A DNA stretch of 64,000 nt from an uncultured Acidobacteriota bacterium. Lineage in GTDB: Bacteria; Acidobacteriota; Terriglobia; Terriglobales; Acidobacteriaceae. The DNA is taken from positions 58,167-122,166 of the forward strand of contig CAWDFM010000004.1 in assembly GCA_963801615.1 (NCBI GenBank), given 5' to 3'. A program made the translations under genes and the position numbers. Positions 44,505 to 64,000 of this stretch are shown in pieces (the stretch's first letter is position 1; each line of letters opens with the position of its first letter). Below the pieces are notes generated by a model. The model saw only the letters and a program-made list of their open reading frames with translations, was not told the origin of the DNA and made no database searches.

Positions 44505-45347
44505 ATGGCGAAAACGGTAGACCAGTATTTTGACGGCTTGCGCGAGACGCGTGTTTGGCGGTCCATTTTCCGCAGCGGGACGGGGTCGAGCACGCTGAAG
44601 CGGGCGCTGGCCATTCAGCAAAACGTGTTCCTGCACCTGTTCTCGACCAAAGTGCGCACGCGCATGTTGAGCTTCAGCGCCACCTGGTATCTAGGGACAC
44701 TGACGCTCGGCACATTTCTGATTCTGGTTGCGACCGGTATTCCCCTGATGCTTTATTACCATCCCTCGGCGCCGCAGGCGTACGCGGACACGAAAGATCT
44801 TCAGTTCGTGGTTTCTTCCGGATTATTTCTGCGCAACCTTCACCGCTGGTCTGCGCACGCGATGGTGTTTCTCGTCTTCGCGCACATGTTCAAAGTGTTT
44901 TATCGCGGCGCCTATCGCCCTCCGAGGGAATTCAACTGGGTGATCGGCATTGTTCTTCTCCTTATCACTCTGCTGCTCAGCTACACCGGATATCTGCTGC
45001 CGTGGGATCAATTAGCGTATTGGGCCATCACGGTGGGATCGAACATCGCATCCGCGGTTCCGGTAATCGGAGACAAGATTCACTTCCTTCTGCTCGGCGG
45101 GAACGCCGTCAATGCAAATGCACTGCTTCGGTTCTACGTGCTGCACTGCATGATTCTGCCGCTGGTAGCGATGTTCTTTGTCGCGATTCATTTCTGGCGC
45201 ATTCGCAAAGATGGCGGACTTTACGCTCATTCCAGTGAGCCTGCGGTTCTGCGAGGAAAGGCCAACAACACTGGGAGCGAGATTCCCACTTCTCGCAAAG
45301 GCAGCGAGAAGTGGGGCACCCAGGCGGAAGCCACGGAGGCGAAATAG
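44505..45347 (+). CDS. cytochrome b, N-terminal four-helix part (b6-like)
   Basis: Helix B has [18 protein letters not shown] (His pair 14 positions apart). Helix D has [18 protein letters not shown] (His pair 15 positions apart). [10 protein letters not shown] motif present. Confidence 0.9.
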
Positions 45348-45349
45348 CT

Positions 45350-46057
45350 ATGGCCGAAAGCAAAGACTTCATCGCCGGCGTGGATTCGAATGCCAAGAAG
45401 TCTCCGCGCCGCATTGTGTTCATCACACGGCGTACTTCTGCGCAGGTGAAGGTAGAGACGGAAGATCAGGTGCAAACCTTCCCAGAGGTCTTGTTTCGCG
45501 CGGCCGTTGCGATTCAGTTGCTGGCTATCGTCCTGGTGTGGACCGCGCTGCTGTTCAATGCGCCTCTGGAAGGACTGGCCGATCCCTCGCACACTCCGAA
45601 TCCCGCGAAGGCACCGTGGTACTTTCTGGGGCTGCAGGAGATGCTGCATTATTTCCCGCCAGTGGTCGCGGGGGTCCTGGTCCCCGGCTTAGTCGTGATG
45701 GCGCTGATCGTCATTCCATATTTCAAGGTCAACATCGAGGCTGACGGATTCTTTCTGAGGGACCGGCAGAAGCGGCTGATGATCTTCTACGCGGTGACTG
45801 CGTTACTCGTCATTTTCCTCGGGTTGTTCCACGTGCTCGTGGGATTGATACCGACGCTGATCATGGCCGGGTTGATGCTACTGGCTGCGCAGAGTTCTCC
45901 CCAGTCTCCATCCGCGTTCCGGCGGTATCTAGCAGAACGGCCGCTTTCCTATTGGGTGATGACCTGGTTCTTATTCGAACTGGTGGTGCTTACGGCCATC
46001 GGTACGTTCTTCCGCGGTCCAGGGTGGTCGTTTATCTGGCCGTGGCAAGGTTCATAA
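45350..46057 (+). CDS. cytochrome b C-terminal part (subunit IV-like)
   Basis: NPAKAPWYFLGLQEMLHYFPP (PEWY-equivalent region) plus additional TM helices. Confidence 0.8.
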   Translation: MAESKDFIAGVDSNAKKSPRRIVFITRRTSAQVKVETEDQVQTFPEVLFRAAVAIQLLAIVLVWTALLFNAPLEGLADPSHTPNPAKAPWYFLGLQEMLHYFPPVVAGVLVPGLVVMALIVIPYFKVNIEADGFFLRDRQKRLMIFYAVTALLVIFLGLFHVLVGLIPTLIMAGLMLLAAQSSPQSPSAFRRYLAERPLSYWVMTWFLFELVVLTAIGTFFRGPGWSFIWPWQGS

Positions 46058-46070
46058 GGGTGCGGCGATC

Positions 46071-48155: not shown

Positions 48156-48886
48156 AGCACTTTGCTTCGGAAGTAACAATTCTGAGTATGGCTTTGCTGG
48201 CTACTTCCTGTTCGCACAAATCCGTGTCGACGCCGGTTATTAAGCCTACAGCGTTCGGCGCCGCGATCGTTGAGTCCAGCGGAGGCAAGCAGCTGGCACA
48301 GACGGGTGCGTTGTTGGCGCAACCCGTGGTCGTGCTGGTCAACGACGCGCAGGGAACGGGCGTTTCTGGCGCGCTCGTCGATTTCGAGGCCGCGCCTGGA
48401 GTGACATTTGATCCTGCCAGCGCGCTGACCGATTCCAGTGGCCAAGTCACCACCAACGTATCCCTTGGCGGGATGGCTGGCCGCTACCAGATCACGGCTT
48501 CTACCTTCGACAAGTCGCACAGAAAAGTGGAATTGAAAATCGAAGAGATCGCGCTTGGTTATCAGCAGGCGCTGGGCAGGCATCTCAACGATCAGTACTG
48601 CGATCGCTGCCACAACGCCGAATCCACTGTCGAACGCGTTTCCAATTACGACAACCTGGAGGTCAAGCCGCATCCGTTCACCGAAGGGTCTACGCTGAAC
48701 AAGATGAGCGACGCAGATCTCACAGCTATCATCATTTATGGAGGACCAGCCCTTAGCAAGTCAGCGCTGATGCCGGGCTGGGGGAACACGCTCAGCAGCG
48801 CCGATGTGCAGGCGCTCATTTCCTATATCCGGGCGATTTCCGATCCTCCATCCCGAAGCGCTGGCCCGGTTTACGCGAAGAATTAG
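48152..48886 (+). CDS. lipoprotein with Ig-like (Big_1-type) domain and C-terminal monoheme cytochrome c
   Basis: Lipobox LLATSC, VVVLVNDAQGTGVSGALVDF...SSGQVTTNV, then CDRCH ... MPGWG. ATGA overlap with the octaheme gene. Confidence 0.8.
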   Translation: MKHFASEVTILSMALLATSCSHKSVSTPVIKPTAFGAAIVESSGGKQLAQTGALLAQPVVVLVNDAQGTGVSGALVDFEAAPGVTFDPASALTDSSGQVTTNVSLGGMAGRYQITASTFDKSHRKVELKIEEIALGYQQALGRHLNDQYCDRCHNAESTVERVSNYDNLEVKPHPFTEGSTLNKMSDADLTAIIIYGGPALSKSALMPGWGNTLSSADVQALISYIRAISDPPSRSAGPVYAKN

Positions 48887-48993: not shown

Positions 48994-51900
48994 TTATGCT
49001 GCGGGTGCAGATTCCTGTCGCGACAGATCTCTTTCTCGCAGCCAAGTGAAGATCACCGGAGTCACAATCAGAACATGCAGTAGGGAGCTGACCATGCCTC
49101 CGAGCACAGGGGTTGCGAGTGGCTTCATCACTTCAGCGCCGGTGCGGGTAGACCACATAATCGGTAAGAGCCCTGCTACAACCGTGGATACGGTCATGAT
49201 CTTGGGACGTAAACGCAACAAGGCGCCTTCCATAACCGCTTCACGCAATCCCTGTACCGTCAGTCCGCCCATCGCGGCTCGCTTTCGCTCCACCGCCTCT
49301 TCCAAATAGATAACCATCACTACACCGGTCTGCACCGCGGTGCCGAACAGGGCGATGAAGCCGACCCAAACGGCAACGGAGAAGTTGTACCCAAGCAGCT
49401 TCAGGAGAAACACTCCGCCGCTCAATGCAAAAGGTACGGCGAGGATCACGTGCGAGGCCTCTTTGAACGAGTTGTAGGTTTTGTAGAGCAGAAGAAAGAT
49501 GATCAGGAATACGACTGGAATGACGAGTTCAAGCCTTTTTTTGGCACTAATCTGGTTCTCGTACTGGCCACTCCACTCGATGTAGTAGCCTGGCGGCATT
49601 TTCACTTCGCGGGCGACAGCATGCTGCGCCTCGTCCACGAACCGGCCAACGTCGCGGCCGCGCACGTTCATCAGCACACTTCCTCGCAGCAAACCGTTTT
49701 CGCTGCTGATCATGGATGGCCCCATCACCACGCCAAGGTCTGCTACTTCTCCAAGAGGAATCTGAGCGCCGTTGCTGGCCGTGACCAGTACGTTGTTTCG
49801 CAACTGTTCGGGATTTTCGCGGAAATCAGGGGAGTAACGAACTCTGACGGGTAGACGTTGGCGACCGTCAATTGCGGTGGTAAGGTTCTTGCCGCCAATC
49901 GCGGTCTCGATCACGTCCTGCACGTCGCCGACGTTTATACCGTAGCGCGCGGCGGCTTCGCGATTCACCTTGATTTCCAGGTACGGAGCGCCGGTGATGC
50001 GCTCGGCATAGAGGTCAGCGACACCAGGAACCGGCCGCAGAGCCCGTTCGATTTCAGTCTCCTTCTGTTCGATGGTCGCGAGGTCGTTGCCAAAGACCTT
50101 TACTCCGACCTGCGTGCGAATGCCGGTCGAGAGCATGTCGATGCGGTTGCGGATGGGCTGGGTCCAGATGTTGGTCACACCCGGCAGACGGAGCTTCTCG
50201 TCCAGCCTTTGCAGGATCGTTTCTTTGGTGGCGCCAGCGGGCCATTTGTCCTTAGGCTTGAAGTTGATGACGGTTTCAGTCATGTTCACTGGCGCGGGAT
50301 CGATGGCGCTTTCTGCGCGACCGATTTTGCCAACGACGCTATCGACCAGCGGATCTTGCGCAATGATTTTGTCCTGCCACCGAAGAATCTCGGTTGCCTT
50401 GGTGAGCGAAATGCTCGGGTCGGTAATCGGCATGAACAGCGCAGTCTCTTCGTCGAGTGGCGGCATGAACTCCGAGCCGATCGTGGTGGCCAGCCAGAGC
50501 GCCGAGGCAAAGATTGCAACTGCCGCACTCAAAGTCACAATCCTGTGCTTTAAAGCCCAGCGCAGTACGGGTTTGTAGATCATTCCCAAGGCGTGCATCA
50601 CGGGATTCGCGTCCTCGCGGTGCAGCTTTCCACGGATCAGGAAGGTGCAAAGCACCGGGACCAAGGTGACCGCGATGAACGTAGAGCACACCATGGCGAA
50701 AGTTTTGGTAAAGGCCAGAGGGTGAAACATCTTGCCTTCCATCCCAGTCAGTGCAAACACGGGTACGAATGCCAAAATGATGATGGTCATGGCGAAGAAA
50801 ATCGGTCGACCGACTAATTTGGCTGCTTCGAGCGTGATCTGGCTAATCGCTGACTTGTATTCGCCATGTTCTTCGTAATAACGCTCTGCGTGCCGCAGCA
50901 CGTTTTCAGTCATCACGATGCCAGCATCGACCAACACTCCAATCGCAATGGCGATCCCTCCGAGTGACATGATGTTGGAAGAGATGTCCGCGTAGTGCAT
51001 GAAAAGAAATGATCCAAGTACCGCAAGCGGCAATGGCAGAGTCACAATGAGGATGCTGCGGAAGTGCCACAGGAAGATCACGTGCGCGAGCGTGACCAGA
51101 GCGATCTCTTCGAACAGCGCCGACTTTAGCGTGTTCACAGCATGAACGATCAAAGTACTGCGGTCGTAAAAAGGAACGATGTGGACACCTTTAGGTAGCC
51201 CTGGCTCGAGCGCTGCAAGTTTCGTTTTGATCCCGCTAATAACCTCCTGCGCGTTCGCCCCGTTGCGGATGACGACCACTCCGCCCACAACATCCTTGCC
51301 GTCCTTGTCGAGAACGCCGCGGCGGAATTCCGGTCCCAAATGGACGTTGGCAACGTTGCGGATGTAGACCGGTGTGCCACCCGTGGCGGTGAGGACGATA
51401 TTCTCAAGGTCGGCCGGCGAGCCAATCAAGCCAATCCCGCGGACTGCCATCTCCTGGTCGCTTGCTTCAATCACTTTTGCGCCAACATTGGTGTTACTGC
51501 GCTGGACGCCGTCGATTATGGTGCGCAAAGGAATGTTGTAGGCGCGCAGTTTGATAGGATCAACGTCGATCTGATATTGGCGTACCCAACCGCCAATGCT
51601 GGCCACTTCTGCCACGCCGGAAACAGAATTCAGCTGGTACTTGATGAACCAGTCCTGAAGGGAGTGCAGGGTTCCGCCGTCGTAGGGGCCCTCGACCGTG
51701 TACCAGAAAACTTGGCCCACGCCGGTTGCATCCGGACCTAGAACAGGTACGACTCCTTCCGGCAGGAAAGCCGATGCCAGGTTCAGCCGCTCCAAGACCC
51801 GTGTGCGCGCAAAATAGGGGTCAATCTTGTCCTGGAAAATGATGTTGATCATTGAGAAACCCAAGGCCGAGGAGGAGCGCACGTCTCTCACTCCCGCCAG

Positions 51901-52125
51901 ACCTTGCAAGTTCACAGTCAACGGATACGTGATCTGGTCTTCCACTTCCTGAGGACTGCGGCCTGCCCAGTCGGTGTAGACAATCACTTGGTTCTCGCTG
52001 AGATCAGGAATGGCGTCGATTGGCGTCCTTAGGAGTGCCCAGTAACCCCAAACAGCCAGCAGCGCGTAAGCCAGCAAAATGAGGCCGCGGTTCTTGAGCG
52101 AAAATTCAATGAGCCGATTGATCAT
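48994..52125 (-). CDS. CusA/CzcA-family heavy-metal efflux RND transporter
   Basis: 1043 aa. [24 protein letters not shown]-terminus and 12-TM HME-RND organisation. Confidence 0.95.
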
Positions 52126-52137
52126 AATTTCTCCTCA

Positions 52138-53727
52138 TCACTGCGCATTCAGCCGGGCGCGGTAGCTGCCTAGAAGTTGCCCGTTGCGGCTGGCATTAAC
52201 TTCGACATTCCAAGAGCCTGCCGACGGGACCTTGATGGTGCCCACGTACTCTGAGCCCTTCCATGTGAGGGCGGTCGAAGCACGCATCTCGGCCATTCCC
52301 ATTGCTGGCATCGCCGGCATAATCAGCGTGACCTTTATTTCCGCATCACTCACGGGCCTTCCGGAAGCCTCGAGCGCGGTCACGTGCAACGTGGCGTCGG
52401 AATTGCCACGTGGTGTTTGCGGATCGCAACGGAAGGTCAGCTTCATCTGAGATACAACCGGGGCTTGCGCCTGACCTTGGTCCGCCTGACCATGATCGAA
52501 TTCTTTCGATCCACCATAGAGTCCAGTCATGCCGCCGCTGATCCTGGTTTGTGAATCGATCAGGAAATTACCCTGACTGACAATGCGTTCGCCTTCTTTG
52601 ACTCCAGAGAGCACTGGGTAGTAGTCGTTGCCAGGCATTCCGAGTTGCACCTCTCGGCCTTCGAATTCCCCATTGCCTTTAGCTACGTAAACGATCTTGC
52701 GCATACCCGTATCGAGAACAGCCGAGCGGGGTATGGCCAGGACGTCGCGTGCTGCCGGTGCAGCAAACTTGACTTGCACGAACATGCCGGGACGCAATCG
52801 CATGTTGGGATTCGGAACCTGGATTCGAGCCGAGGCAGTGCGGGTCTGAGGGTTGATGGAAGTATCGAGAAATCCCACTCGCCCATGCAGGGTAGCGCCG
52901 GGTAGTGAGTCCGAAGTGATCTCAACGTTCTGGCCGGTATGCACAGCGGGCAAATCGGGCTGGTACACGTCGGCCTTTACCCAAATCGTGCTCAAGTCGA
53001 CCACGGTAAAAAGGACTTCGCCTGCGTTTACGTATTGCCCTTGGGTAACCTTGCGTTCGCTCACGATGCCGCTCACGGAGGCATAAATGGGGAGTTCGAT
53101 CTGCGGTTTCTCCGACGATGCGATCTCATCAAGCTGCGGTGGAGTGAGTCCCCAAAGTTCGAGCCGGCGGCGGCTGGCGGTTACGAGATCTTCGGCCCCT
53201 GCGACTGCAAGGGGCTCGGCGCTTTTGGCCAGACGCCTTTGGTTCTCGATCGCGAGCCTGTACTCTTCAGCGGCGGAAAACACTTCCGGACTGTAAAGCG
53301 ATGCGATGATCTGACCACGACGCACTTGCTGGCCCGTGAAATCCAGGTTGAGTTTGTCGATGCGGCCACCGATGCGGGCACTGATCGAAGCCAGTTGGGT
53401 TTCCGGTTCGTCTACTTTGGCGACAGTCATCAGAGCGCGTTGAAGGTTACGTCGCCTGACTTCGACCGTTTCGACACCAATGTCCTTCTGTTCTTTCTGG
53501 TCGAGTTGAATACTGGAAACCGAGGAGTCAGCCTGGGCTTGCTCATGTTCTGCTCTTCGAGACGTGGTTTGGTCTAACGGTGTCTCGTACTCGGGAATCT
53601 GGCCTTCTTGAGTCTGGGCAGCGCTACGCTCGGGTTGCCAAAGGCGAGTCGCGCCGTACACGACGAAGGCCAGCACCAGCCCGAGAGCGAGTCCTGTGCC
53701 AAGAAGTTTCTTTTCATGATGTGTCAT
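52138..53727 (-). CDS. efflux RND periplasmic adaptor (CusB-like) with extra C-terminal Met-rich YtkA/FixH-like domain
   Basis: The adaptor core (barrel-sandwich/lipoyl motifs) is followed by ...LTFRCDPQTPRG...IMPAMPAMGMAEMRAS...GSWNVEVNA. Confidence 0.9.
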   Translation of the reverse strand: MTHHEKKLLGTGLALGLVLAFVVYGATRLWQPERSAAQTQEGQIPEYETPLDQTTSRRAEHEQAQADSSVSSIQLDQKEQKDIGVETVEVRRRNLQRALMTVAKVDEPETQLASISARIGGRIDKLNLDFTGQQVRRGQIIASLYSPEVFSAAEEYRLAIENQRRLAKSAEPLAVAGAEDLVTASRRRLELWGLTPPQLDEIASSEKPQIELPIYASVSGIVSERKVTQGQYVNAGEVLFTVVDLSTIWVKADVYQPDLPAVHTGQNVEITSDSLPGATLHGRVGFLDTSINPQTRTASARIQVPNPNMRLRPGMFVQVKFAAPAARDVLAIPRSAVLDTGMRKIVYVAKGNGEFEGREVQLGMPGNDYYPVLSGVKEGERIVSQGNFLIDSQTRISGGMTGLYGGSKEFDHGQADQGQAQAPVVSQMKLTFRCDPQTPRGNSDATLHVTALEASGRPVSDAEIKVTLIMPAMPAMGMAEMRASTALTWKGSEYVGTIKVPSAGSWNVEVNASRNGQLLGSYRARLNAQ

Positions 53728-55124
53728 CAGCGCACCTCCGGAGTGATCTGAGGAAGAGAAGCTTGAGGGCCGGTTGTGTTCGATTCGTGTCCGTCCCGTG
53801 GCAGGGAAGTTCCCACCGCACGTTCGAGATCGGCGATTCGCGATTCCAGTTCGGATGCGGAGCGGTAGTAATCGAGTTCAACTTCGAGGGCCGTGTTCTG
53901 GCTGTCGAGCAAGTTGAGGAAGTCGGTGCGGTCGACCTGATAAGCAGCAACCGTTGACTTTAATGTTGCCTGTGCCTGGGGACGAAGCGTCTGGTTGTAA
54001 AGATCAACGAGGCGCTTCGCAGACTGCGCGCGAATCAGAGCATCCTGGATTTCCTGGAAGACGATCGCCCGTTGGTTTTCGTACTCTGCTCTTTCAGCCG
54101 AGACCTCCGCTTGGGCTTCGGCGATCTCCGCGTCGTGGCGCCCTCGATTCAGCCAGGGCAACGTGACAGCGACCTCCGCCATATAGGTGTTGCGATAACG
54201 GGCGCCGTCCGGCATGAGCATATAGCCAGCGCTCAGGTTGTAGTCAGGCGTGTAGGATTTCTCGGCCAGTTTGGTGCGGGCCTCACCTTGCCGCACGCCT
54301 GAAGATGCCATCGCCAACTCGGGCCGATTCTCCAAAGCGGTCTTTTCCAGGTCTAAGAGTGCGGGGAGCTTTTGCGGCGGCGAATAATCGCCCTGAAGTT
54401 CCAGTGGAGATGCGGGGTCTCGTCCCAGGAGTGTATTCAGTCGGGCGCGCGCGAGACCGCCGTCCTGTTCGAGCATCACCAGGTGCTCGACAAGTTTAGT
54501 AAGTGCAATCTGCGCTTTCAGCACGTCCTGCTGCGGAACGCGACCGACAACATACTTGATCCGCGCCGACTCGGAGGACTCGCGAGCCAGCGCCGCCTGC
54601 TCGTCATGCAGCAGGAGTTCGTCTTGATTGCGGAGGAGGTCATAGAATGTCTTCCGAACTTCAGCCGTGACATCGCGCTTTTTGGCGTCCAGTTCCGCTT
54701 TGACCTGCTCCACTCCCTCCGAGGCGAGTTGAGTGCGCAGGGCCCGCTTACCCGGACCGGGCAGTGACTGATTGAACATGAACATGTGCTGCGTCTGGTT
54801 CAGATCCCATGGCCTGGCGAGTGGTGTGCCCCAACCGCGATACATGAATTCGGGGTCGCTCAACGACCCAGCGCTGCGCACCCGTGTCTCGGCGATTGCG
54901 ACGCGACGCATAGCTACCCGGATTTCGAAATTGTTTGCCAACGCAGCTGCTTCGAGTTCGTTAAGACTCATGGGCGGCGTGGACGACCGAGGGTGCTGAT
55001 GCTCCTGCGCCAGAAGGCCAGTCACACCAGACAGGGGATCGACATTGGCGGGGGGCTCATTGGCAAAGCCCACGGCACCGCTGAAGGCAATCAGCAGGCA
55101 AATACTTACACGTAGAACTTTCAT
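53727..55124 (-). CDS. TolC/CusC-family outer-membrane efflux protein
   Basis: Start taken at MKVLRVSICLLIAFSGAVGFA, with ggagg RBS. Two OEP repeats. Confidence 0.85.
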   Translation of the reverse strand: MKVLRVSICLLIAFSGAVGFANEPPANVDPLSGVTGLLAQEHQHPRSSTPPMSLNELEAAALANNFEIRVAMRRVAIAETRVRSAGSLSDPEFMYRGWGTPLARPWDLNQTQHMFMFNQSLPGPGKRALRTQLASEGVEQVKAELDAKKRDVTAEVRKTFYDLLRNQDELLLHDEQAALARESSESARIKYVVGRVPQQDVLKAQIALTKLVEHLVMLEQDGGLARARLNTLLGRDPASPLELQGDYSPPQKLPALLDLEKTALENRPELAMASSGVRQGEARTKLAEKSYTPDYNLSAGYMLMPDGARYRNTYMAEVAVTLPWLNRGRHDAEIAEAQAEVSAERAEYENQRAIVFQEIQDALIRAQSAKRLVDLYNQTLRPQAQATLKSTVAAYQVDRTDFLNLLDSQNTALEVELDYYRSASELESRIADLERAVGTSLPRDGHESNTTGPQASLPQITPEVR

Positions 55125-55234
55125 TGCTCCTCCGTAAACAGTTAACGAGTCGAGGGATAGGAGGCATGTTGCTGCCAGCCGCACCAAAGGCGCAGCAAGG
55201 CAGGGCACGACTTCATCCGGGCAATGAAAGTTGT

Positions 55235-55612
55235 CTAGATTCTCAAAACAGAATTACAGCCGGGGGACAGTTCCGGTGGTGGAGCGTGAAGAAATGAGAG
55301 GTGGGCGCGCACGGTTACAGCGGGCAATGCTCCTGAGGAGGCGACTGGTGGTAACACAGCAATTGTGAGGGGACGAACCGGTCCGGCAGCCTGCGCCTGG
55401 GGAAGAACAGTGTTCGTCGGTGCCTGAGCCTTGCAGCACGAGTGACTGGCCGGCATCATGGAACTTCCACACTGCTCCGCCATGTGGTGGCAGCACTCCC
55501 GTTCCGCGGGAGTCATCGTCGCACCTGGCAGAACACACGCCATGGCTGGCGTGATGGCCCACAGAAGGGCAATCGTCAGCAGGGCGCATGCTCGAGTTCT
55601 AGTCACTCTCAT
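55235..55612 (-). CDS. secreted Cys/His/Met-rich small protein upstream of the efflux operon
   Basis: Signal peptide, then ERECCHHMAEQCGSSMMPASHSCC. Confidence 0.5.
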   Translation of the reverse strand: MRVTRTRACALLTIALLWAITPAMACVLPGATMTPAERECCHHMAEQCGSSMMPASHSCCKAQAPTNTVLPQAQAAGPVRPLTIAVLPPVASSGALPAVTVRAHLSFLHAPPPELSPGCNSVLRI

Positions 55613-55694
55613 AAGTGTACTGCGTTTTCTGACGGCTATGGATGAGTTCTCGCTTCAAACAAAATAATGTTACGTCGAGCTGGACGACAACTGC

Positions 55695-55710
55695 TGTGAC
55701 GGAAATCACA
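55695..55710. promoter_or_regulatory. perfect CRP-type palindrome TGTGA-N6-TCACA
   Basis: tgtgacggaaatcaca lies 83 nt upstream of the 55612 start codon and directly before the Crp-like gene remnant. Confidence 0.5.
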
Positions 55711-55767
55711 GCCCAAGGAAGGGTGTGGCGAGGAATCGCCAATCTTGTCGTCAATCTTTAATAGAGT

Positions 55768-55897
55768 CTGTTGCTATCCGGCGCTCGGCCATTTTTGGAT
55801 CAGCCGTTCAATTCGAGCGAGAAGAGGCTGGACCGGATCCTTTTGCTACACGCTCGTTTGGCAAGGAGGCACGCCCGAGACGGTCGTCCCCAAGATC
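55768..55897 (+). pseudogene. decayed fragment of a Crp/Fnr-family regulator gene
   Basis: Three frames in succession read LDQPFNSSEKRLDRILLLHAR / FGKEA / PETVVPKI. These match DQLFNSSEKRLARVLLLLARFGKEGIPETVVPKI of the intact regulator at 27076..27819. Frameshifts are present and both the beta-roll and the HTH are missing. Confidence 0.55.
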
Positions 55898-56041
55898 TTT
55901 TGGAATGTCCAAGTCACATTCGCAAACCGACCGTCATAAAACAAAACATGCAACCTGTTCGAGCCTGCCTCGGTAGGCGCCGCTCATATCTACGCCAGCA
56001 GTTCTCGGCTCGCGCTAATCGGTCGGCAATCAGGCTATCCG

Positions 56042-56266
56042 CTACGACCGCAGAGTGACGGGTGTTGCTGCCGCCATGCATAGCTCTCGGTAGCGGATTT
56101 TGCGAACCGTGTGTGTAATCCCCAAAAAGCCGGGGGCCATAAAGCATGTCCGTCCAGCGGGCGAATGACATTGCGGGCAATCGACGGTCAGTTCAGGATG
56201 TCCCTTGCGGATACCTTTTCTTGCTTGCTTTGCGTTGGGCCACAGTTGTACGCCAGGCGTCGCCAT
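56042..56266 (-). CDS. small zinc-finger protein, paralogue of 28909..29049 (possibly decaying)
   Basis: MATPGVQLWPNAKQARKGIRKGHPELTVDCPQCHSPAGRTCFMAPGFLGITHTVRKIR... shares the C-P-x-C-x-[AS]-x-[PA]-G-x-x-C ... H..R pattern. Confidence 0.35.
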   Translation of the reverse strand: MATPGVQLWPNAKQARKGIRKGHPELTVDCPQCHSPAGRTCFMAPGFLGITHTVRKIRYRELCMAAATPVTLRS

Positions 56267-57019
56267 GCACATCCTCCAGATACTTTGCATTATTAGTTCA
56301 GTAAGGTAGTTGCGATGTACGCTCATTCGTCGTCTGAGTAACGTGAGACGTACGCACGGCCCCTACGTCGTGCCCCCTGGGGAGGGAAGTGGGTTACGCG
56401 AGAATAACAGTGGTGGAGTGGAAGATAGACATGTAGCAGCGCGAATTTGCACTCAAATTACAAACTTAACAATCGGCAATGAAGAGTACTTCACTATTCG
56501 ACTACGCATAATAGCGCTCGACCATTACATGACTTCATTCCCATGCCAACTGTATCCAGTAGCGACGGATAGTCGAATGCGCCTGCCCATACCAACGCTG
56601 TAGTCGCACGTATTTAACATTTATTACTTGTATAGACATAGTGTTAAGTTTGTTAAACCTTCGCAAAATCAGCGTGCGGAGCTTAGATATTTGCTGTTGA
56701 ACAAAATCGGTAACCGCAAGCCCGCATAAGCTCAGCTCACTTCACGACTGAAGTTGCGACTCGTGAGTGTAGCAGCGGCATTCGGCGCTCCCCCCAAGTG
56801 CTAAGTCGGCCGCTGACTGAAGTAGTGGGGATCCATAACAAAGCATCATGAACGGTAATTAGAGCTGGATGCGGCGGCTCAACGCAGGCACATCTAGCTA
56901 TCGCTGAATGTCTGTGCACGGTTACAGCTCGCAAAGTGTCCGGTACCGTGCACCGCAAACAGCACTTATCGTCCCGAGCGCGGTGTGCGCCCGCAAGTAA
57001 GCCAGGAGGCTACACGGTC

Positions 57020-58621
57020 ATGAGGAAGATGTCATCAATCTATCTCTCCCTAGTTCTGGTCGTGGTTGCGACCGTCGCCGCAAGCGGCCAGTCGTTCCAG
57101 GTCCAGTGTCCAACCAGCACGATCACCCACCCGTCGGCACTCCACGACAACAATTCGGAACCTGCCTATACCGCTCCGACGACTCTTGCCACAGGCGCCG
57201 CTGGATATCTGGCGCCGACAGCGAACGTGAACGGCGCGATCAAGTGCCAGCAGATTTCGGGCGGCGACGGTTTCGCGTCGATGGGCGACGGCACCCAGAC
57301 GTATCTGTTTGCCTTCGGTCCTCTGTCGGGATTGGCAGACATGTCGAAAGGGCTGCCCGGCACACAGTTCCCGGACGTATTCAATACGGTCGCGCCTCCG
57401 TTGTTGCCCGGTGATCCGGCCACGTCTGACGGCGCACGTCAGTCCCCGTATTCCTTCGGTGACCCCTCGTTGTTCACTTATAACGGCGCCGTCGGACTGG
57501 CTCCTGACTTGGACGCCATCGCGGCTGGTTCTTGCACCGCTCCATGCCTCGATGGGCACGTCGATCCGCGGCCGATCATGGATGTTGGCGTCATGAATGG
57601 CAACATACCGGCGCCTCTGATGGCGATTGATGAAGATGACGAGTTCTTCCTTACTCTGTCGAACGTCGGCCAAGTTATGCGCCCGGACCTGTTCGAGCAG
57701 CACACGGTTCACTTTCATGGCTATCCCAATGCTTCCGCCTTCTATGACGGCGTGCCGGACGCTTCGGTCGCCATTAACATCGGGGGCAGCTTCACCTATT
57801 ACTATCTGGCGCCCGATGCGGGCACGTACTTCTGGCACTGCCACATCACGCCCCCAGAGCACTTACAGATGGGCATGGTGGGCCAGCTTTATGTGCGGCC
57901 GCGTCAGAATCGAGTCCCAGGCACTACGAGGCTTTATGCCGCACTCCAGCAACAGCAACTGGATCCGCGCACGAAATGCGATTCCACTGACATCCTCTGC
58001 AGCAATCCACTGCCGGCGGTGGATACAGGTGCGACAGGGGGGGCCAAGTACGCCTACAACGATGGCGACGGCACGACCAGATACGACGTCGAGTATCCCC
58101 TCCAGATCCACGGCTTCGATCCAAATTTCCACTTTGTCGGCATGACTTTCAATCCGGAAGGCTTTACGGAGATGAAGGACAAGTACTTCTTGCTGAACGG
58201 CCGCAGTTATCCCGACACCGTGCATGAAGGGCCGCTGGCGACGCAGACGACGGATGGCTCCTTGCATTACGCGCAGCCGATGTCTGCGATCATCAACATT
58301 CCGGCCGGTGGAAGGGCGCTCCTGCGCATTGCGGACCTGGACGTCACGGAATATCAGACGCTGGCCTCGCTGGGCATCCCGATGCAGGTAATCGCGCTCA
58401 ATGCCAAGCTGCTGCGCGACCAGTCGGGAAACAACCTCTATTACAACACCAACTCGATCACGTTGGCGGGCGGCGAATCACTCGACGTGATTCTGGATGC
58501 CAGCGACAAAGACAAGTATCCCTCCGGTAGCGTGTTTTATCTCTACACCCCCAATCTTGACCACTTGTCGAACGATGCCGAGAACTTCGGTGGCCTGATG
58601 ACCGAAGTCCGGATCAATTAG
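57020..58621 (+). CDS. multicopper-oxidase-like subunit A: T1 site plus half of the trinuclear-cluster ligands in its first cupredoxin domain
   Basis: Signal peptide MRKMSSIYLSLVLVVVATVAASGQ. Motifs HTVHFHG (H-x-x-H-x-H) and WHCHITPPEHLQMGM (H-C-H...H...M). The second cupredoxin domain has no ligand motifs. aggagg RBS. Confidence 0.85.
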   Translation: MRKMSSIYLSLVLVVVATVAASGQSFQVQCPTSTITHPSALHDNNSEPAYTAPTTLATGAAGYLAPTANVNGAIKCQQISGGDGFASMGDGTQTYLFAFGPLSGLADMSKGLPGTQFPDVFNTVAPPLLPGDPATSDGARQSPYSFGDPSLFTYNGAVGLAPDLDAIAAGSCTAPCLDGHVDPRPIMDVGVMNGNIPAPLMAIDEDDEFFLTLSNVGQVMRPDLFEQHTVHFHGYPNASAFYDGVPDASVAINIGGSFTYYYLAPDAGTYFWHCHITPPEHLQMGMVGQLYVRPRQNRVPGTTRLYAALQQQQLDPRTKCDSTDILCSNPLPAVDTGATGGAKYAYNDGDGTTRYDVEYPLQIHGFDPNFHFVGMTFNPEGFTEMKDKYFLLNGRSYPDTVHEGPLATQTTDGSLHYAQPMSAIINIPAGGRALLRIADLDVTEYQTLASLGIPMQVIALNAKLLRDQSGNNLYYNTNSITLAGGESLDVILDASDKDKYPSGSVFYLYTPNLDHLSNDAENFGGLMTEVRIN

Positions 58622-58631
58622 GAGCGCAGCA

Positions 58632-60194
58632 ATGAGGGCGATGAACATGAAAAAAGCGATCTCGAAAACACAAGTGCTTCTGGCAACGATGGTGGCAGTG
58701 ACTTGGTTGTTTACTGCCATGGCCCATGCTGCGGTTCCCGGGATAACCGGCCCGACGTTCAACCTGACGGCGCGGCCGGCTTACATCAGCCAGCCCGACG
58801 GATCAGCTGTTTATTCCTGGGGATACGGCTGCAGTGTCGCGCCGAGCGGTTTTGCTCCGGCTCTCACCGGCGCCACGTGCCCAACCATGCAAGTTCCCGG
58901 GCCTACGCTGATCGTCACGCAAGGAGCGACGGTCATCGTAAAGCTCACGAATAATCTGCCCGATGCAGCCGGGAACACATCAATTCTGTTCCCCGGATTT
59001 CAGGTGACCGCAACCGACGGTGTAAATGGGCTGCTGACGCGAGAGGCGGGCCGCGCGACGTCAAACGATACGGTGACCTACACCTTCGTTGCCTCGACTC
59101 CGGGCACACACGCCTACTACAGCGGAACTCAAGGCGACCTGCAGGTCGAGATGGGCTTATATGGGGCAATCATTGTCCTCCCCTCGAGTACCCCGGCCGC
59201 CTGCGATTCGGGAGTGCATGCTTCCAACGGGATGGCGCAGAGCCGCTGGGGCGAAACCGATTTCCGGCTCGCCCACGCAGCGTACAACCACCCGGGAGCT
59301 TGCTACGACCGGGAATACCTCTTCCAGTACTCCGAAATGGATCCCAGGATTCACCGACAAGCCGAAGAGCAGTCCACCAGGGGCTGTACTGGTTGCATGA
59401 ACGTTGCCACCGAGCCTTATGTTCCAGCCTATTTCATGATCAACGGGCGCTCGATGCCGGACCTCATGGATCCAAACTATGCCAGGGAATATCCGCACCA
59501 ACCTTACAACGGCAATCCGCACATGCATCCGGGTGAGTTGACGCTGCTGCGCATCATCGGCACCGGGCGTTGGCAACACCCCTTCCACGAGCACGGCAAC
59601 CACGTACGCATTCTGGCGCGCGATGGCAATTTGATTCTCAGCGCGACCGACGCTAACAGTCTCGCCGGACCTCTGCTGTTCACCACGACTACGACTCCCG
59701 GCCTCACGATGGACGGAATTTACTACTGGACCGGCAAAGGTCTGAACTGGGATCCGTATGGTCACAACGCAGTCTCCGGATCCACCCTGCCTTGCACCCC
59801 GGACGCTAATGGCTACAACACGAGTGCTTACAATGCGATCAATTACTTCGAGTGGTGCCAGGATCACAACAAGCCTTTGCAGACTCATCCGTTCGGCGAC
59901 GTCGCAGGCGGCGGTCCGGCGACTCTGCCTGATCCCAACATCTTGGCGAACGGTCCCTGGTTCGGCGGCAGTCCCTATCTGGGGCCGGAGGCAACGGTGC
60001 GCGCTGTCGGCAACACCGGCACCACGCCGCCGTCCGGCACGGTGGCGAATGCACCTGATGCAGAAGCTGGCTTTGCCTTCATGTGGCACTCGCACAATGA
60101 GCGCGAAATCACCACCAACAACATTTTCCCGGGCGGAATGCTGATGATGATGCTGGTCGATTCCCGGGAATTTGTCATCGACGAGTCCAACTAA
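58632..60194 (+). CDS. multicopper-oxidase-like subunit B: ligand-less first domain; last domain carries H-x-x-H-x-H and H-S-H (no T1 Cys)
   Basis: Signal peptide. The first domain has FPGF and AYYSG where HxHG and WYHSH would be expected. The C-terminal domain has QHPFHEHGNH and FMWHSHNEREI. aggag RBS. Confidence 0.85.
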   Translation: MRAMNMKKAISKTQVLLATMVAVTWLFTAMAHAAVPGITGPTFNLTARPAYISQPDGSAVYSWGYGCSVAPSGFAPALTGATCPTMQVPGPTLIVTQGATVIVKLTNNLPDAAGNTSILFPGFQVTATDGVNGLLTREAGRATSNDTVTYTFVASTPGTHAYYSGTQGDLQVEMGLYGAIIVLPSSTPAACDSGVHASNGMAQSRWGETDFRLAHAAYNHPGACYDREYLFQYSEMDPRIHRQAEEQSTRGCTGCMNVATEPYVPAYFMINGRSMPDLMDPNYAREYPHQPYNGNPHMHPGELTLLRIIGTGRWQHPFHEHGNHVRILARDGNLILSATDANSLAGPLLFTTTTTPGLTMDGIYYWTGKGLNWDPYGHNAVSGSTLPCTPDANGYNTSAYNAINYFEWCQDHNKPLQTHPFGDVAGGGPATLPDPNILANGPWFGGSPYLGPEATVRAVGNTGTTPPSGTVANAPDAEAGFAFMWHSHNEREITTNNIFPGGMLMMMLVDSREFVIDESN

Positions 60195-60219
60195 CTACTG
60201 AGGAACTGAGGAGAGAGCG

Positions 60220-63200
60220 ATGCGATTCAACTGTCCCAAAGCGACTATAAGAACAACGGTACTGGCGGTATTGGTTCTCCTCCTTGGAGCGAGTTGGGCC
60301 GTCGCCCAGCAGCAGATCAATCTGACCGCGGGACCGACCAGCATTACCTTGCCCGATGGCTCGGTGGTCTCGATGTGGGGCTACAGCTGCGGCGCGGTCG
60401 TGACAGGTTCACTTGCGACGTGCGCCAAGTCGAACCCCACGGCGGCCGGCTGGTCGCCCGTGGTGATTACGGTGCCCACGGGGGAGACCCTGCAGGTTAA
60501 ACTCACGAACAGCCTGACGTTCGGCGCCAACGGTGTACCTACTTCGTTGACCATCGTAGGTCAGTTGGGCGGCGGCCTCGGAGCAACGCCGATCCGCACA
60601 GCGAGTCCCGATCACGCTGTGCAAGGCGCCACATGGCCGGTCGCGGACCCCACCACAACGAATACTCCGCCACCCCAGGAGCAACGCGTGCAGTCGTTCT
60701 CCACGGAAGTGGCAGCGGGAGCGACGACCAGTCTGACGTGGACAACGCCTCGCGCTGGCACGTACCTGCTGGAGTCGGGCACGCACCCCTCCATTCAGGG
60801 TCCCATGGGCCTGTACGGCATGGTGGTGGTGACCGACGCCACCACCGGTACTGCGTACCCAGCAGCCGGGACGACACCAGCCGTGACTTACAACGCGGAT
60901 GCATCATTCCTGTTCAGTGAAATCGACCCGGTCCAAAACAACGCGGTCAATACCGCGGTCAATACGGATGGTTTCAGCGAAACCATGGTGTGGTCGGGGC
61001 AAGCAGGCGGTTGCGGCAATCCGAGTTCAGCTACCTATCATCAATGCTATCCGCCGGCCGTGAACTATACGCCGGTCTATTACCTCATCAACGGAGTCGC
61101 TTTCGACAGGACCCATGCTACGACTTCGCTGTTCCCGACCACGCCCGCAACTGGAGTTGCTGGAACCGTGTTGGTGCGCTTGGTGAATGCGGGTTTGCGG
61201 ATGCACATCCCGTCGATTGTTGGCGCGCAAACTGGGACCCCCGCAGTCTCAGGCCTCGGATTGATTGCGGAAGACGGCAACCCCCTCCCCGGCGTTCGCC
61301 GCGTACAAAATGAAGTATTCATGGCCGCGGGCAAGACCTACGATGTGATTTTGAACGTACCGGCCGCCGCCGCGACCGCCCTCCCAATTTTCGATCGGGA
61401 AGGCAGTTTGTCGGGCAACAAGACTGAGCGTGATGCTGGCATGCTGGCCTACATCAGCGTCAACGGCGCGGGACTTCCGGATGGAGTTCCTGGACTCGGG
61501 GCTGTTGCGGAAGCCAATCCGGATACTTATAACGCCTTGCTTTCGGGCAAGACCCTGACGGTATCGGATCCAGCCAAAGGCTTGATTGCGAATGACGTCA
61601 ATGTTTATGGCGTCCATGTCTCAGGCACGGCGCCAGCCGGGCTGGTTCTCAACACGGACGGGACCTTTGCCTATACCGGCCCCACGACTAGCTTTACGTA
61701 TTGCGCGAACAACTCAACAACTGCGTGCGCTCTGGTGACACTGGGCGCGGCGGAGATGGAAGGAGCGTCGGGCATTACCTGCACCGTCCCCACACCTACG
61801 TACACATCGAATGTGGCAACGACTTTGAGCATCAAGCCCCCAGGCGTCCTCGCCTTCTGTAAGGACGCGGCGGGCTATCCTCTGACCGTCGCCGCGTCCC
61901 CCGCTCCCGTTCTTGTTGGCGGATCGGTTGTCATGGACGCGAATGGTGGGTTCAACGCGACCGTTGCTGCCTCGGGCTCGCACGACTTAACTTTTACGCC
62001 CCAGAACTCTCAGGGGACCAATGGGAGCCTAGCGACGGCCACGCTCGTCTTCCCGACGGCCAGTGGTCTTCAGGTAACGCTGGTTGATGGACAAACCAAG
62101 GCTCCACTTTCTTCTCAGGACTACCGTTGGATTATTGAGGAAGACCGCACCTTCTATGTCGACCCCAATTGCCAAACGAACCCCGCGCCAGCGAACTGCT
62201 CTCGAACTCCCCAGGGAACCCCCGCCATATTTGGGACGAACTTCCACACCAGCTACATGCCAGTCGTAGCGCAGGGCTGCATAGGGACGATTTCCTGCGA
62301 AACCGGCCAGACCGTCCTCGGATCGCCCGCGGTGTGCGACATTGGCAACGGCATTTGCCATCCTGGATCAACCAAGGCCGCGCTGGATCCCAGCCAGGTC
62401 GTTCTAGATCCGGCCAAGCACTACTACATCTCCGTCCTGCCGGGCGATGCTATGGACCCGGGACATGCTATGGGCGGCGCTCAGATCGCGAACGCCTGCA
62501 CCCCGGCGCCGCCAGCAACCACGTGCACCGGCACTTTCGCACCCGTAACAGTTCTGGTCGAGCCTGAGAACCAGCCACCAGCTAAGGTCTCGGCGTTCGT
62601 GTTCGAAGACGATCATCCACTCAACGGCGAGCATGATGCCAGCGGCGGAATCGACACCTTGGCGCCCAACGAGCCCGGCCTGGGAGGGTTCAACATCACC
62701 ATCGTGGACCTGGTGGGCATGTCGGGCGACTCTGCCGGACAGATAACCTACGACGAGTTCGGCCAGCCTTTGTCGAACGCGCTGGCGGGAAGCATCGACC
62801 CGGTCACGAAGCTGGACGCGTGCCCGATCACGGCAAATCCGAACACAGGATTTGACGGCGCCACCAGCGATACCGGCATCACCGGCGTAGTCCCGGTCTG
62901 CCCGAAGTACGAGGCGGATGGCGTCACTCTGTCGCCACTGGCGGGGCAGGCAATCGTCGCGAACATGCCCCCCGGGAGGTACGGCATCATAGCCACACCC
63001 GCAGCTGACCGAATTGCGGCCGGCGAGGAATGGCTGCAAACCAACACTCTGGACGGTGGCAAGGATCACGAAGCTTTCATCAAGGCAGGTGAGCCTGCGT
63101 ACTTCCAGGAGTTCGGTCCGGGATCATTCCACGTCTCCATCGGCTTTGCCAATCCGCAGTTCATCAAAGATCAAGGAACTGCGCTTTGCAACGGCCTCGG

Positions 63201-64000
63201 CGCGCCAGCGTGTACCCAGTCTGTGACCGGGGTGGTAACGGGCGCACGCATGAGTCGCCCGTCGGACGAGAGACTGTACGGCAGCGGTTCGCGCGATACC
63301 TTTGGTTACACCCAGTGCTATGCCAGCTTAGGTAGCCCGGATGGCGCTGATATCTCGTTCGCCAAGTGCGATCCTGTCAGCGGGGCGTTTACGTTGAACG
63401 GAGTGCCGGCCGGGGACTGGAGACTTACCATCTTCGACCAGTGGAACGATCAGATCGTCGACGGGATTTCGACCCCGGTCCGCGTGGGCGGCGGCACTAA
63501 CACCACTTTGTGCCACGGGTCGAGTTCCAGTGGCACGACCTGCGACTTGGGAGAAATCGGAGTTCACGGGTGGAAGAACAACCTCTCTACCCGCACATTC
63601 TTTGACCTCAACGGGGATGGCGTATCTCAGGACAGCGAACAGGGTCTGTCACTGGTACCGACCAACATACGGTACCGTGACGGCAGCATCTCCAACCTCA
63701 ACAGCACCGATCTGGAAGGCTTCGCCGGCTTCAACGAAGTCTTTCCAATCTTCAATTGGTACGTGATGGAAACGGATTCGACCCGCTATAAGAACACGGG
63801 GACGCACGTAATCAACGATGCGGGCGGTCCGGTTGACGGTTCCACCGGCCCCTATGGGTGCGGACAAAACGGCTACCCGGCGTGCGGGATTGCCACCTCA
63901 ATGCTGAACATGGCCAGGACCGCTGAGGATTTCTCTGTGCCTTTGGCCCTCCGGGTTCCGGGCGCAAGGTATTGCGCCAATGCAGATTGTCCTACTGGCG
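60220..64000 (+). CDS. very large secreted protein (over 1260 aa, 3' end beyond window): two ligand-less MCO-like cupredoxin domains plus long extension with SdrD-B/Cna-B-like segments
   Basis: Manual translation from ATG 60220 (gaggagagag RBS) stays open to the window end. The N-terminus is paralogous to subunit B (ITLPDGSVVSMWGYSC..., GTYLLESGTHPSIQGPMGLYGMVVV, YYLINGVAFD), with MHIPSIVG in place of HPFHEHG. Later segments read FEDDHPLNGEHDA and FFDLNGDGVSQDSEQG. Confidence 0.8.
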   Translation, partial: MRFNCPKATIRTTVLAVLVLLLGASWAVAQQQINLTAGPTSITLPDGSVVSMWGYSCGAVVTGSLATCAKSNPTAAGWSPVVITVPTGETLQVKLTNSLTFGANGVPTSLTIVGQLGGGLGATPIRTASPDHAVQGATWPVADPTTTNTPPPQEQRVQSFSTEVAAGATTSLTWTTPRAGTYLLESGTHPSIQGPMGLYGMVVVTDATTGTAYPAAGTTPAVTYNADASFLFSEIDPVQNNAVNTAVNTDGFSETMVWSGQAGGCGNPSSATYHQCYPPAVNYTPVYYLINGVAFDRTHATTSLFPTTPATGVAGTVLVRLVNAGLRMHIPSIVGAQTGTPAVSGLGLIAEDGNPLPGVRRVQNEVFMAAGKTYDVILNVPAAAATALPIFDREGSLSGNKTERDAGMLAYISVNGAGLPDGVPGLGAVAEANPDTYNALLSGKTLTVSDPAKGLIANDVNVYGVHVSGTAPAGLVLNTDGTFAYTGPTTSFTYCANNSTTACALVTLGAAEMEGASGITCTVPTPTYTSNVATTLSIKPPGVLAFCKDAAGYPLTVAASPAPVLVGGSVVMDANGGFNATVAASGSHDLTFTPQNSQGTNGSLATATLVFPTASGLQVTLVDGQTKAPLSSQDYRWIIEEDRTFYVDPNCQTNPAPANCSRTPQGTPAIFGTNFHTSYMPVVAQGCIGTISCETGQTVLGSPAVCDIGNGICHPGSTKAALDPSQVVLDPAKHYYISVLPGDAMDPGHAMGGAQIANACTPAPPATTCTGTFAPVTVLVEPENQPPAKVSAFVFEDDHPLNGEHDASGGIDTLAPNEPGLGGFNITIVDLVGMSGDSAGQITYDEFGQPLSNALAGSIDPVTKLDACPITANPNTGFDGATSDTGITGVVPVCPKYEADGVTLSPLAGQAIVANMPPGRYGIIATPAADRIAAGEEWLQTNTLDGGKDHEAFIKAGEPAYFQEFGPGSFHVSIGFANPQFIKDQGTALCNGLGAPACTQSVTGVVTGARMSRPSDERLYGSGSRDTFGYTQCYASLGSPDGADISFAKCDPVSGAFTLNGVPAGDWRLTIFDQWNDQIVDGISTPVRVGGGTNTTLCHGSSSSGTTCDLGEIGVHGWKNNLSTRTFFDLNGDGVSQDSEQGLSLVPTNIRYRDGSISNLNSTDLEGFAGFNEVFPIFNWYVMETDSTRYKNTGTHVINDAGGPVDGSTGPYGCGQNGYPACGIATSMLNMARTAEDFSVPLALRVPGARYCANADCPTG

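Follow-up and report, generated by a model that had tools for sequence, protein, structure and literature searches.

The stretch analysed here (hereafter the window) is 64,000 nucleotides (nt) of genomic DNA from an uncultured member of the Acidobacteriaceae (phylum Acidobacteriota; assembly GCA_963801615.1, contig CAWDFM010000004.1, positions 58,167 to 122,166 of the forward strand). Three consecutive genes in its last part, which we call A, B and C (Table 1), together appear to encode a multicopper oxidase (MCO) whose copper ligands are divided between the products of A and B. Gene B starts 10 nt after the TAG stop codon of A, and gene C starts 25 nt after B. The leaders of all three proteins are hydrophobic and lack a twin-arginine motif (judged by eye only). 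We found no terminator-like sites across positions 55500-60400, the A-B-C spacers included, and promoter-like matches in the same interval were at chance level. An earlier note on this DNA, made from the letters alone, had pointed to the 10-nt spacing and to a ribosome-binding site and signal peptide for each of A and B, and our reading of the sequence agrees.

Copper ligands of A and B and their conservation

Proteins A and B both pass the curated Pfam cut-offs for PF07732 and PF07731 (residues 189-296 of A match Cu-oxidase_3/_2; in B, residues 87-185 match Cu-oxidase_3 and residues 297-334 match Cu-oxidase_2). No close relative of either protein was found in the PDB, where the best matches by phmmer and hmmsearch were two-domain MCOs (2dMCOs) of type C: the blue copper oxidase of Nitrosomonas europaea (3G5W), an Arthrobacter enzyme (3GDC) and the metagenomic mgLAC (2ZWN). 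Two-domain nitrite reductases came next. Type-C 2dMCOs carry H-x-x-H-x-H and H-C-H in domain 1 and H-x-x-H-x-H and H-x-H in domain 2, and the same motifs are present in A and B. The HTVHFHG of A aligns with HTIHWHG in domain 1 of 3G5W and 2ZWN, and its H273-C274-H275...H281...M286 aligns with the domain-1 pattern YHCH..H..M (YHCHVNVNEHVTMRGM in 3G5W). The motifs of B align with domain 2: HPFHEHG with HAIHTHG of 3G5W (HAIHTHGH) and HAMHSHG of 2ZWN (HAMHSHGH), and FMWHSH with FIFHDH of 2ZWN, so that H486 and H488 fall on FHDH.

The remaining motif positions have no ligands. When the A-family profile was aligned to the B-family profile with hhalign (Prob 99.5, E 7e-23, A 195-496 against B 87-368, covering both domains), HTVHFHG of A was paired with TSILFPGF of B, WHCH of A with YYSG of B, and HPFHEHG of B with YQTLASLG of A. 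In a hand alignment Y509-T-P511 of A stands opposite H486-S-H488 of B; T510 and P511 do not vary, and Y509 hardly does. Counted over the whole proteins, there are two H-x-H motifs in A, three in B and none in C (in 1260 residues), and a type 1 copper (T1) site of the form His-Cys-His(-Met) was found in A only, with none in B or C. By alignment, then, A is assigned the full domain-1 ligand set and nothing else, and B the domain-2 set only. The predicted T1 site of A consists of His228, Cys274, His281 and Met286, its predicted cluster histidines are 231, 233, 273 and 275, and those predicted for B are 319, 321, 486 and 488. Jointly A and B hold exactly four conserved H-x-H motifs (eight His), and no single chain holds four. 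The rule for 2dMCOs that each chain has both domain-1 and domain-2 cluster ligands is followed by none of A, B and C.

This assignment upholds most of what the earlier note had said of the two proteins, namely that the T1 site and four cluster His of A all lie in its first cupredoxin domain (alignment to domain 1 of 3G5W and 2ZWN), that the second domain of A has no ligands (YQTLASLG and YTP at the motif positions by hhalign and hand alignment), that the first domain of B has none either (SILFPGF and HAYYSGTQ at the motif positions by PDB alignment and hhalign), and that the last domain of B supplies four cluster His (aligned to 2ZWN and 3G5W). Its view that a T1 Cys in the last domain of B had been replaced by Ser had to be given up: the H-S-H of B is an ordinary domain-2 cluster motif, because domain 2 of type-C 2dMCOs never has a T1 site (2ZWN has H-D-H). 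Hidden H-x-H motifs, which the note had named as evidence that would count against it, were looked for, and only H297-M-H299 of B turned up, which is not a family ligand (see below).

Conservation was examined in two clades of orthologues, one including the window (83 A and 75 B sequences) and one divergent (53 A and 81 B sequences), with between-clade identities of 36-51% for A and 36-46% for B. In A, H228, H231, H273, C274, H275, H281 and M286 are invariant in 136/136 sequences, and H233 is kept in 82/83 window-clade and 53/53 divergent-clade sequences; all eight ligands of A are present in 135/136. In B, H316, H319, H321, H486, S487 and H488 are invariant in 75/75 sequences of the window clade and 81/81 of the divergent clade (156/156). 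Other histidines are not kept between the clades (37, 180, 364, 416 and 515 of A, each invariant in the window clade only, and 297, 324 and 378 of B). The H297-M-H299 motif of B is likewise invariant in the window clade; in the divergent clade H299 is kept in 58/81 sequences and H297 is R or M in 67/81. H297 is therefore not a family ligand, and the motif was rejected as one. Such invariance of the ligands across hundreds of orthologues is far beyond chance.

The sole A protein with a changed ligand, H233S at locus L081, still adjoins an intact B (HPFHEH, WHSH); this change may be a sequencing error and is uninformative as to whether A and B decay together. The site of HAYYSGTQ in domain 1 of B reads mostly Y-H-S-G in the divergent clade, which by alignment we take as a vestige of H-C-H. 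A homologous and conserved pair of histidines at the start of domain 2 (H371 of A and H241 of B) probably has a structural role.

The gene order is as constant as the ligands. By tblastn, genes occur in the order A-B-C in 83/83 genome loci where the contig reaches. An exhaustive search with B gave divergent full-length B orthologues at 35-50% identity, and the alignment of these retrieved 80 further metagenome loci; among the divergent metagenome loci, an A-like gene precedes B and a ligand-free B/C-like gene follows it in 81/81 where the contig allows. Flanking genes differ between loci while the A-B-C order stays.

Table 1. Positions of the operon's features. Coordinates are those of the window, except in the last row, where they are given for each locus; residue numbers are those of the respective protein.
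Feature	Position	Strand	Basis or remark
Shine-Dalgarno sequence of gene A, AGGAGG	57004..57009	+	read from sequence; 10 nt ahead of the ATG at 57020
Gene A, 533 residues; two-cupredoxin-domain subunit with predicted sole T1 site and domain-1 half of trinuclear cluster	57020..58621	+	
Probable Sec signal peptide of A (MRKMSSIYLSLVLVVVATVAAS), without twin-arginine motif	57020..57085	+	by eye from translation
A motif H228-T-V-H231-F-H233-G; H228 assigned to T1, H231 and H233 to cluster	57701..57721	+	
A motif W-H273-C274-H275-ITPPE-H281-LQ-M284-G-M286 (WHCHITPPEHLQMGM); assigned T1 Cys, His and axial Met and two Cys-flanking cluster His	57833..57877	+	
A domain 2, site of lost H-x-x-H-x-H (YQTLASLG)	58352..58375	+	hhalign, over HPFHEHG of B
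A domain 2, site of lost second H-x-H (Y509-T-P511)	58544..58552	+	hand alignment to H486-S-H488 of B via common GG(L/M)M strand
Shine-Dalgarno sequence of gene B, AGGAG, overlapping the TAG stop of A	58620..58624	+	read from sequence
Gene B, 520 residues; two-cupredoxin-domain subunit with ligand-free domain 1 and predicted domain-2 half of cluster	58632..60194	+	
B domain 1, degenerate SILFPGF where H-x-x-H-x-H-G is expected	58980..59000	+	aligned to HTIHFHG of 3GDC and HTVHFHG of A
B domain 1, degenerate HAYYSGTQ where W-H-C-H is expected	59109..59132	+	alignment to solved 2dMCOs and A
B extra motif H297-M-H299, not family-wide	59520..59528	+	conservation across two clades
B motif H316-P-F-H319-E-H321-G-N-H324; H319 and H321 assigned as cluster ligands	59577..59603	+	alignment to domain 2 of 3G5W and 2ZWN
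B motif W-H486-S487-H488, assigned second cluster-ligand pair	60084..60095	+	aligned to FHDH of 2ZWN domain 2
Shine-Dalgarno sequence of gene C, GAGGAG	60208..60213	+	read from sequence
Gene C, running past the window end, >1260 residues here; third subunit and giant extension	60220..64000	+	
C N-terminal module (~residues 30-420), two cupredoxin-like domains, B paralogue, no copper ligand	60307..61479	+	
Open reading frames with giant N-terminal extension on A	L087:3449-9910, L099:3562-9945, L114:2918-9142, L155:2-7129, L157:3458-9919		

Protein C, paralogy and fold

Protein C consists of a B-like module and a long extension. B and C are 27% identical over 361 columns by BLASTP (E 1e-11), and the C-equivalent segment at locus L084 matches the Pfam family Cu-oxidase (PF00394) at 4e-8. 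The motif positions of C read PTSLTIVGQL, YLLESGTH and LRMHIPSIVG and hold no ligands, and H-x-H is absent from 64/76 and 37/39 C orthologues. The ligand-free domains of the three proteins are domain 2 of A (A.D2), domain 1 of B (B.D1) and both domains of the C module (C.D1 and C.D2). These sequence relationships are best explained by descent of A, B and the two-domain module of C, as three paralogues, from a type-C 2dMCO, with complementary loss of ligands.

For B, an AlphaFold2 model built on the deeper alignment reached a predicted local distance difference test score (pLDDT) of 81.5 and a predicted template modelling score (pTM) of 0.84. When the model was compared to the PDB with Foldseek, 2ZWN ranked first (TM 0.72 on the target), 3G5W scored 0.69, and the whole target chain was aligned; further matches were two-domain MCOs and copper nitrite reductases (NirK; 7RAB, 9CCK and the Geobacillus NirK), with three-domain MCOs interleaved from about rank 7. 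From this ranking, B is a 2dMCO-type subunit with insertions. The AlphaFold2 model of A (72 homologues at >=78% identity) had a pLDDT of 44 and a pTM of 0.27 and was unusable.

The extension of C contains the Pfam domains Big_9, Cadherin_4/5 and SdrD_B as well as conserved Cys pairs, and the haem motif CxxCH was found in none of 79 C sequences (0/79). The orthologues of C called at full length have 2948, 2938, 1988 and 2055 residues, and across loci the size ranges from ~350 to 2950 residues. In the divergent clade A is shorter (~410-500 residues) and the third subunit often has only 350-880 residues. At five loci of this clade C is short and A forms the C-terminal part of a 2075-2376-residue protein (Table 1); the tether, at the C-terminus of C elsewhere, is here at the N-terminus of A, and so has moved between subunits. 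What is conserved as the core is thus a set of three two-domain modules, whereas the position of the giant extension can change.

Locus L167 (4021-8716) shows the modules in another arrangement. An A-like gene of 410 residues (HWH, HCH) is followed there by a gene for a 1156-residue B-C fusion (P0490), in which a B module (HPH, HSH) is joined to a ligand-free second module; CopC/CopD is next and there is no separate C. This is a two-gene version of the three-module system, and the fusion, as a Rosetta-stone case read from sequence, supports a contact between B and C. The leader of the A-like protein at this locus looks Tat-like (DRKQFL).

Predicted assembly, alternatives and known oxidases

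Our inference covers the assembly and the order of its ring as well as its copper, its activity as an oxidase and its location, as follows. Three proteins exported by the Sec pathway would join outside the cytoplasm as one A-B-C ring of six cupredoxin domains. A single trinuclear cluster would lie at the interface between A.D1 and domain 2 of B (B.D2), and O2 would be reduced to water there; electrons, taken up by the T1 copper of A, would pass over the Cys274-His273/His275 bridge. The other two interfaces, B.D1/C.D2 and C.D1/A.D2, would be copper-free and purely structural, and the long Ig/cadherin-like tail of C would anchor the enzyme either to the cell surface or to a substrate outside the cell. 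The reducing substrate, we guess, would be an extracellular metal ion or a phenolic compound. In an A-B-C ring ordered in this way, the domains that meet at the empty interfaces are exactly the four ligand-free ones, and this is the strongest argument for a defined heterotrimer.

The earlier note had claimed that neither A nor B could build the cluster alone and that their halves are complementary, and had read the two as an obligate A-B heteromer. The ligand mapping, the invariance of the ligands, the fold of B and the adjacency of A and B in 164 loci, where the survey of co-occurrence that the note had suggested gave no counterexample, all point the same way. The complementary halves thus stand, on ligand mapping and conservation, while the conserved unit is larger than the A-B pair of the note, a trio with C. 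Since C, the paralogue without ligands, is never missing, we favour a heterotrimeric ring over a plain A-B dimer. On the model of the 2dMCO homotrimer, we consider a heterotrimeric A-B-C ring with one T1 site and a trinuclear cluster at the A/B interface reasonably probable, and we are fairly confident that A and B share a trinuclear cluster in some form, whether C belongs to the ring or not.

Several points weigh against the heterotrimer. Gene order taken by itself could also reflect a looser partnership in function, and the stoichiometry could be other than 1:1:1. The leaders look Sec-type, and many bacterial MCOs use the twin-arginine translocation (Tat) pathway; with Sec-type leaders, metallation would therefore take place outside the cytoplasm. 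The two-domain fold of A is a prediction from profile alignment. Finally, there is an insertion of ~100 residues in B between its motifs and one of ~85 residues in domain 1 of A, which may affect the packing.

The best-surviving alternative, though one we regard as rather unlikely, is that A and B form a catalytic heteromer (a dimer or a higher oligomer) that shares the cluster, and that C remains outside any six-domain ring and serves in docking, chaperoning or substrate binding or sits in some other geometry. All evidence for ligand complementarity fits such an A-B heteromer equally well, C is far larger and more variable in its architecture (~350-2950 residues), and in the window clade the conservation of its N-terminal module barely exceeds that of the rest of the protein. 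However, in both clades B is followed at every locus by a two-domain paralogue without ligands, which is there even when it has ~350-450 residues and essentially no tail, and at L167 this module is fused to B. In addition, the closest structural matches of B, solved 2dMCOs and NirKs, are three-fold assemblies, and in an open A-B pair two domain faces would have no partner.

It is improbable that A and B are separate homo-oligomers with non-canonical copper sites that are co-transcribed because they serve a shared pathway. In this case A3 would have a T1 site and a four-His mono- or binuclear site, resembling a nitrite reductase or an electron carrier, and B3 a four-His site but no T1 site. Each protein does have its own leader and ribosome-binding site, and domain 1 of A also scores against copper nitrite reductases. 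In those enzymes the type 2 (T2) copper at the D1/D2' interface is bound by only three His, and the first motif contains Asp (D-x-H within H-x-x-D-x-H), whereas A has H231-F-H233 (judged by motif spacing), and where the interface motifs would fall in its domain 2 there is no conserved His. A homotrimer of B would pair its ligand-bearing domain 2 with a ligand-free domain 1 and would have no site for electron entry, and an exact complementary retention of ligands in paralogues that are never found apart would not be expected for independent enzymes. A last possibility, that the proteins are non-catalytic structural or adhesive proteins of the cupredoxin fold whose motifs are relics, as in the copper-free SufI/FtsP, is very hard to uphold: C and four of the six domains are copper-free, C is adhesin-like and SufI (2UXT) is among the Foldseek matches, but relic ligands decay, and here twelve ligand residues are invariant over ~290 sequences at 36-90% identity while neighbouring His vary.

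How does the proposed A-B-C ring compare with known enzymes? Each cluster of a known 2dMCO homotrimer is placed where domain 1 of a protomer meets domain 2 of the next. In a description of 2dMCOs of types A, B and C, each trimer is formed by one gene product (a homotrimer where this is specified), and its cluster is built from residues of two protomers (PMC13151041, 2026). As an interface cluster is already normal for homotrimeric 2dMCOs, the novelty here would be that its two halves are on different gene products. Like A, each chain of the type-C enzymes, which are the best matches in both sequence and fold, is made of two cupredoxin domains, with a T1 site in the first only. The type-C enzymes differ in having four H-x-H motifs per chain and three T1 sites and three clusters per trimer, whereas A, B and C have two, two and none of these motifs (the unkept H297-M-H299 aside) on three genes, so that an assembly could hold no more than a single cluster and a single T1 site, with large insertions and a giant tail added.

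The predicted outcome would be analogous to ceruloplasmin and hephaestin, with a pseudo-threefold ring of six domains, a single cluster and two copper-free interfaces. Ceruloplasmin and hephaestin are single polypeptides with T1 sites in even-numbered domains; the A-B-C system has three polypeptides, a T1 site in an odd-numbered (first) domain and, it seems, an ancestry among type-C bacterial enzymes. Its six cupredoxin domains are not on one chain, as there are three open reading frames with stop codons and their own ribosome-binding sites, and only the B-C fusion is found elsewhere. As we read them, classical models place an unfused triplicated stage between 2dMCO homotrimers and six-domain oxidases.

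The NirKs, with significant matches in sequence and fold, are also two-domain trimers with T1 in domain 1 and a catalytic copper at the D1/D2' interface, and this T2 site is mononuclear; A and B together differ from them in having the full eight-His set of MCOs. Assignment to NirK was rejected (TIGR02376 score 33.6 against a cut-off of 296, and domain 2 of A without conserved interface His), as were assignments to CopA/PcoA (TIGR01480, 37-40 bits against 479) and CueO (NF008205, 13-27 against 525). No curated NCBIfam model comes near its cut-off, and the family is therefore without a dedicated annotation. Among multi-subunit oxidases, the Mnx complex of Bacillus (MnxG with MnxE3F3) is a bacterial MCO encoded by adjacent genes. 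To our knowledge, MnxG is a complete six-domain MCO and its small non-MCO accessory subunits are not known to supply cluster ligands, whereas in A-B-C the catalytic site itself would be split between paralogous MCO chains. Nmar_1354 of Nitrosopumilus maritimus (9CCK) is a 2dMCO described as an 'alpha-alpha-alpha-prime heterotrimer', in which all protomers come from a single gene and differ in whether proteolysis has removed a pendant domain, and each chain has all ligands (PMC11761707). Both it and the A-B-C complex, as predicted, are trimers of non-identical protomers, and they differ in the number of genes and in the distribution of ligands. We found no solved structure, curated family or literature description of a split or heteromeric MCO of this kind, the literature search having taken in heteromeric and split MCOs, those of acidobacteria, the types of 2dMCO, the evolution of six-domain enzymes and the mnxG operon; the earlier note was likewise not aware of any description.

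Genomic setting and implications

In a scan of species-representative genomes (one genome per species) at least 504 relatives were confirmed. Taxonomy was taken from the best 80 of these, which are mostly Acidobacteriota (Terriglobia, Bryobacterales, Sulfotelmatobacter and Acidoferrales) and otherwise carry the labels Binatia, Steroidobacteraceae, Gallionellaceae, Verrucomicrobiae, Dongiaceae and Limnocylindria. The genome nearest to the window is a metagenome-assembled genome (MAG) of the Terriglobia (A 88%, B 92% and C 84% identical); the exact sequence of protein B from the window had no entry in the assembly index. Among the matches listed there were at least 7,600 clusters at 90% identity each for A-like and for B-like proteins, the top 120 clusters being >=76% identical to the query. 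Two or three complete A-B-C operons occur in several genomes, in some cases in tandem (L043/L062); multi-copy loci include L060, L066 and L083 of Acidobacteria bacterium AB60, whose record does not carry the label MAG, and L035, L039 and L069. Some copies lie beside genes for transposases or integrases (at L001, and at 8 loci with an integrase cluster). Identities of ~70-80% across MAGs assigned to different phyla suggest horizontal transfer or binning errors.

Upstream of gene A there is a 1.4 kb gap (55613-57019) with no convincing open reading frame and an AT-rich stretch at ~56600-56700; no Rfam matches were found in 55500-57100. This gap is possibly the regulatory region of the operon. 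Beyond it, on the minus strand (48994-55612) and divergent from the oxidase operon, lies a CusCBA-like operon for heavy-metal efflux of the resistance-nodulation-division type. A 1043-residue open reading frame was taken for the pump and a 493-residue one for the TolC-like outer-membrane factor; the CusB-like adaptor (52138-53727) has a C-terminal YtkA/FixH-like domain, and a small secreted Cys/His-rich open reading frame (55235-55612, CCHHMAEQC...SHSCC) has no Pfam match. A reading of A-B-C as part of copper resistance was rejected: CusCBA adjoins it in the window but the flanks vary between loci, and because of this variation CusCBA is not a conserved association. Further upstream, on the plus strand (41345-48886), is a respiratory-type cluster that encodes a plastocyanin-like domain fused to a CarboxypepD_reg domain, a Fer4_20/Pyr_redox_2 flavoprotein, a Rieske protein, a split cytochrome b, a 694-residue multihaem cytochrome c and a protein with Big_1 and cytochrome c domains.

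At other loci the neighbours include further genes for copper handling, namely SCO1/SenC (L084 and L085) and CopCD (L167), alongside the CusCBA of the window. Certain genes recur in the 10 kb upstream of loci L004-L083 (e.g. L032:1522-3819, L079:2442-4889 and L026:6926-8923). Two of them resemble type II secretion genes: a GspE-like secretion ATPase that is fused to a receiver domain occurs at 24 loci, and a secretin that has a cohesin domain at its C-terminus occurs at 12. The others are a histidine kinase, at 24 loci, and regulators of the LuxR type, at 11, and of the Crp type, at 10. These may be a dedicated module for secretion and regulation of the complex. Loci L084 (16326-22919) and L085 (564-6356) share a repeated accessory set of small hypothetical proteins, a LolA-like protein and SCO1/SenC, which at L084 also includes a 674-residue beta-helix/TSP3 protein and a cytochrome-c-like protein of ~525 residues; a 543-residue cytochrome-like gene similar to the latter lies just upstream in L003. 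The SCO1/SenC, CopCD, CusCBA and type II secretion-like neighbours fit extracytoplasmic copper handling, and they are not universal.

MCOs are divided into two-, three- and six-domain classes, and in all that we found one gene product supplies every copper ligand. On the fullest form of our proposal, which we hold at even confidence, A-B-C is an obligate heterotrimeric MCO with a six-domain ring and one T1 site and one cluster split over two chains, is tethered to a giant surface protein and is abundant in Acidobacteriota and other soil and sediment phyla. With the same confidence it would be an unfused, gene-triplicated architecture of the ceruloplasmin kind and might be a major extracellular oxidase. 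If the proposal is true, A-B-C would be a new quaternary class, in which the cluster is spread over two gene products and a third pseudo-subunit closes the ring. It would also be a clean natural case of subfunctionalisation by complementary loss, and an observable unfused intermediate for the origin of six-domain oxidases from 2dMCO trimers.

The arrangement is very common in soil bacteria, where these proteins are at present labelled only as generic 'multicopper oxidase' or 'hypothetical'. Soil metagenome surveys that score A or B as stand-alone laccases would therefore mislead. Whether metals, humics or phenolics derived from lignin are oxidised, the choice of substrate could bear on how carbon or metals cycle in soil.

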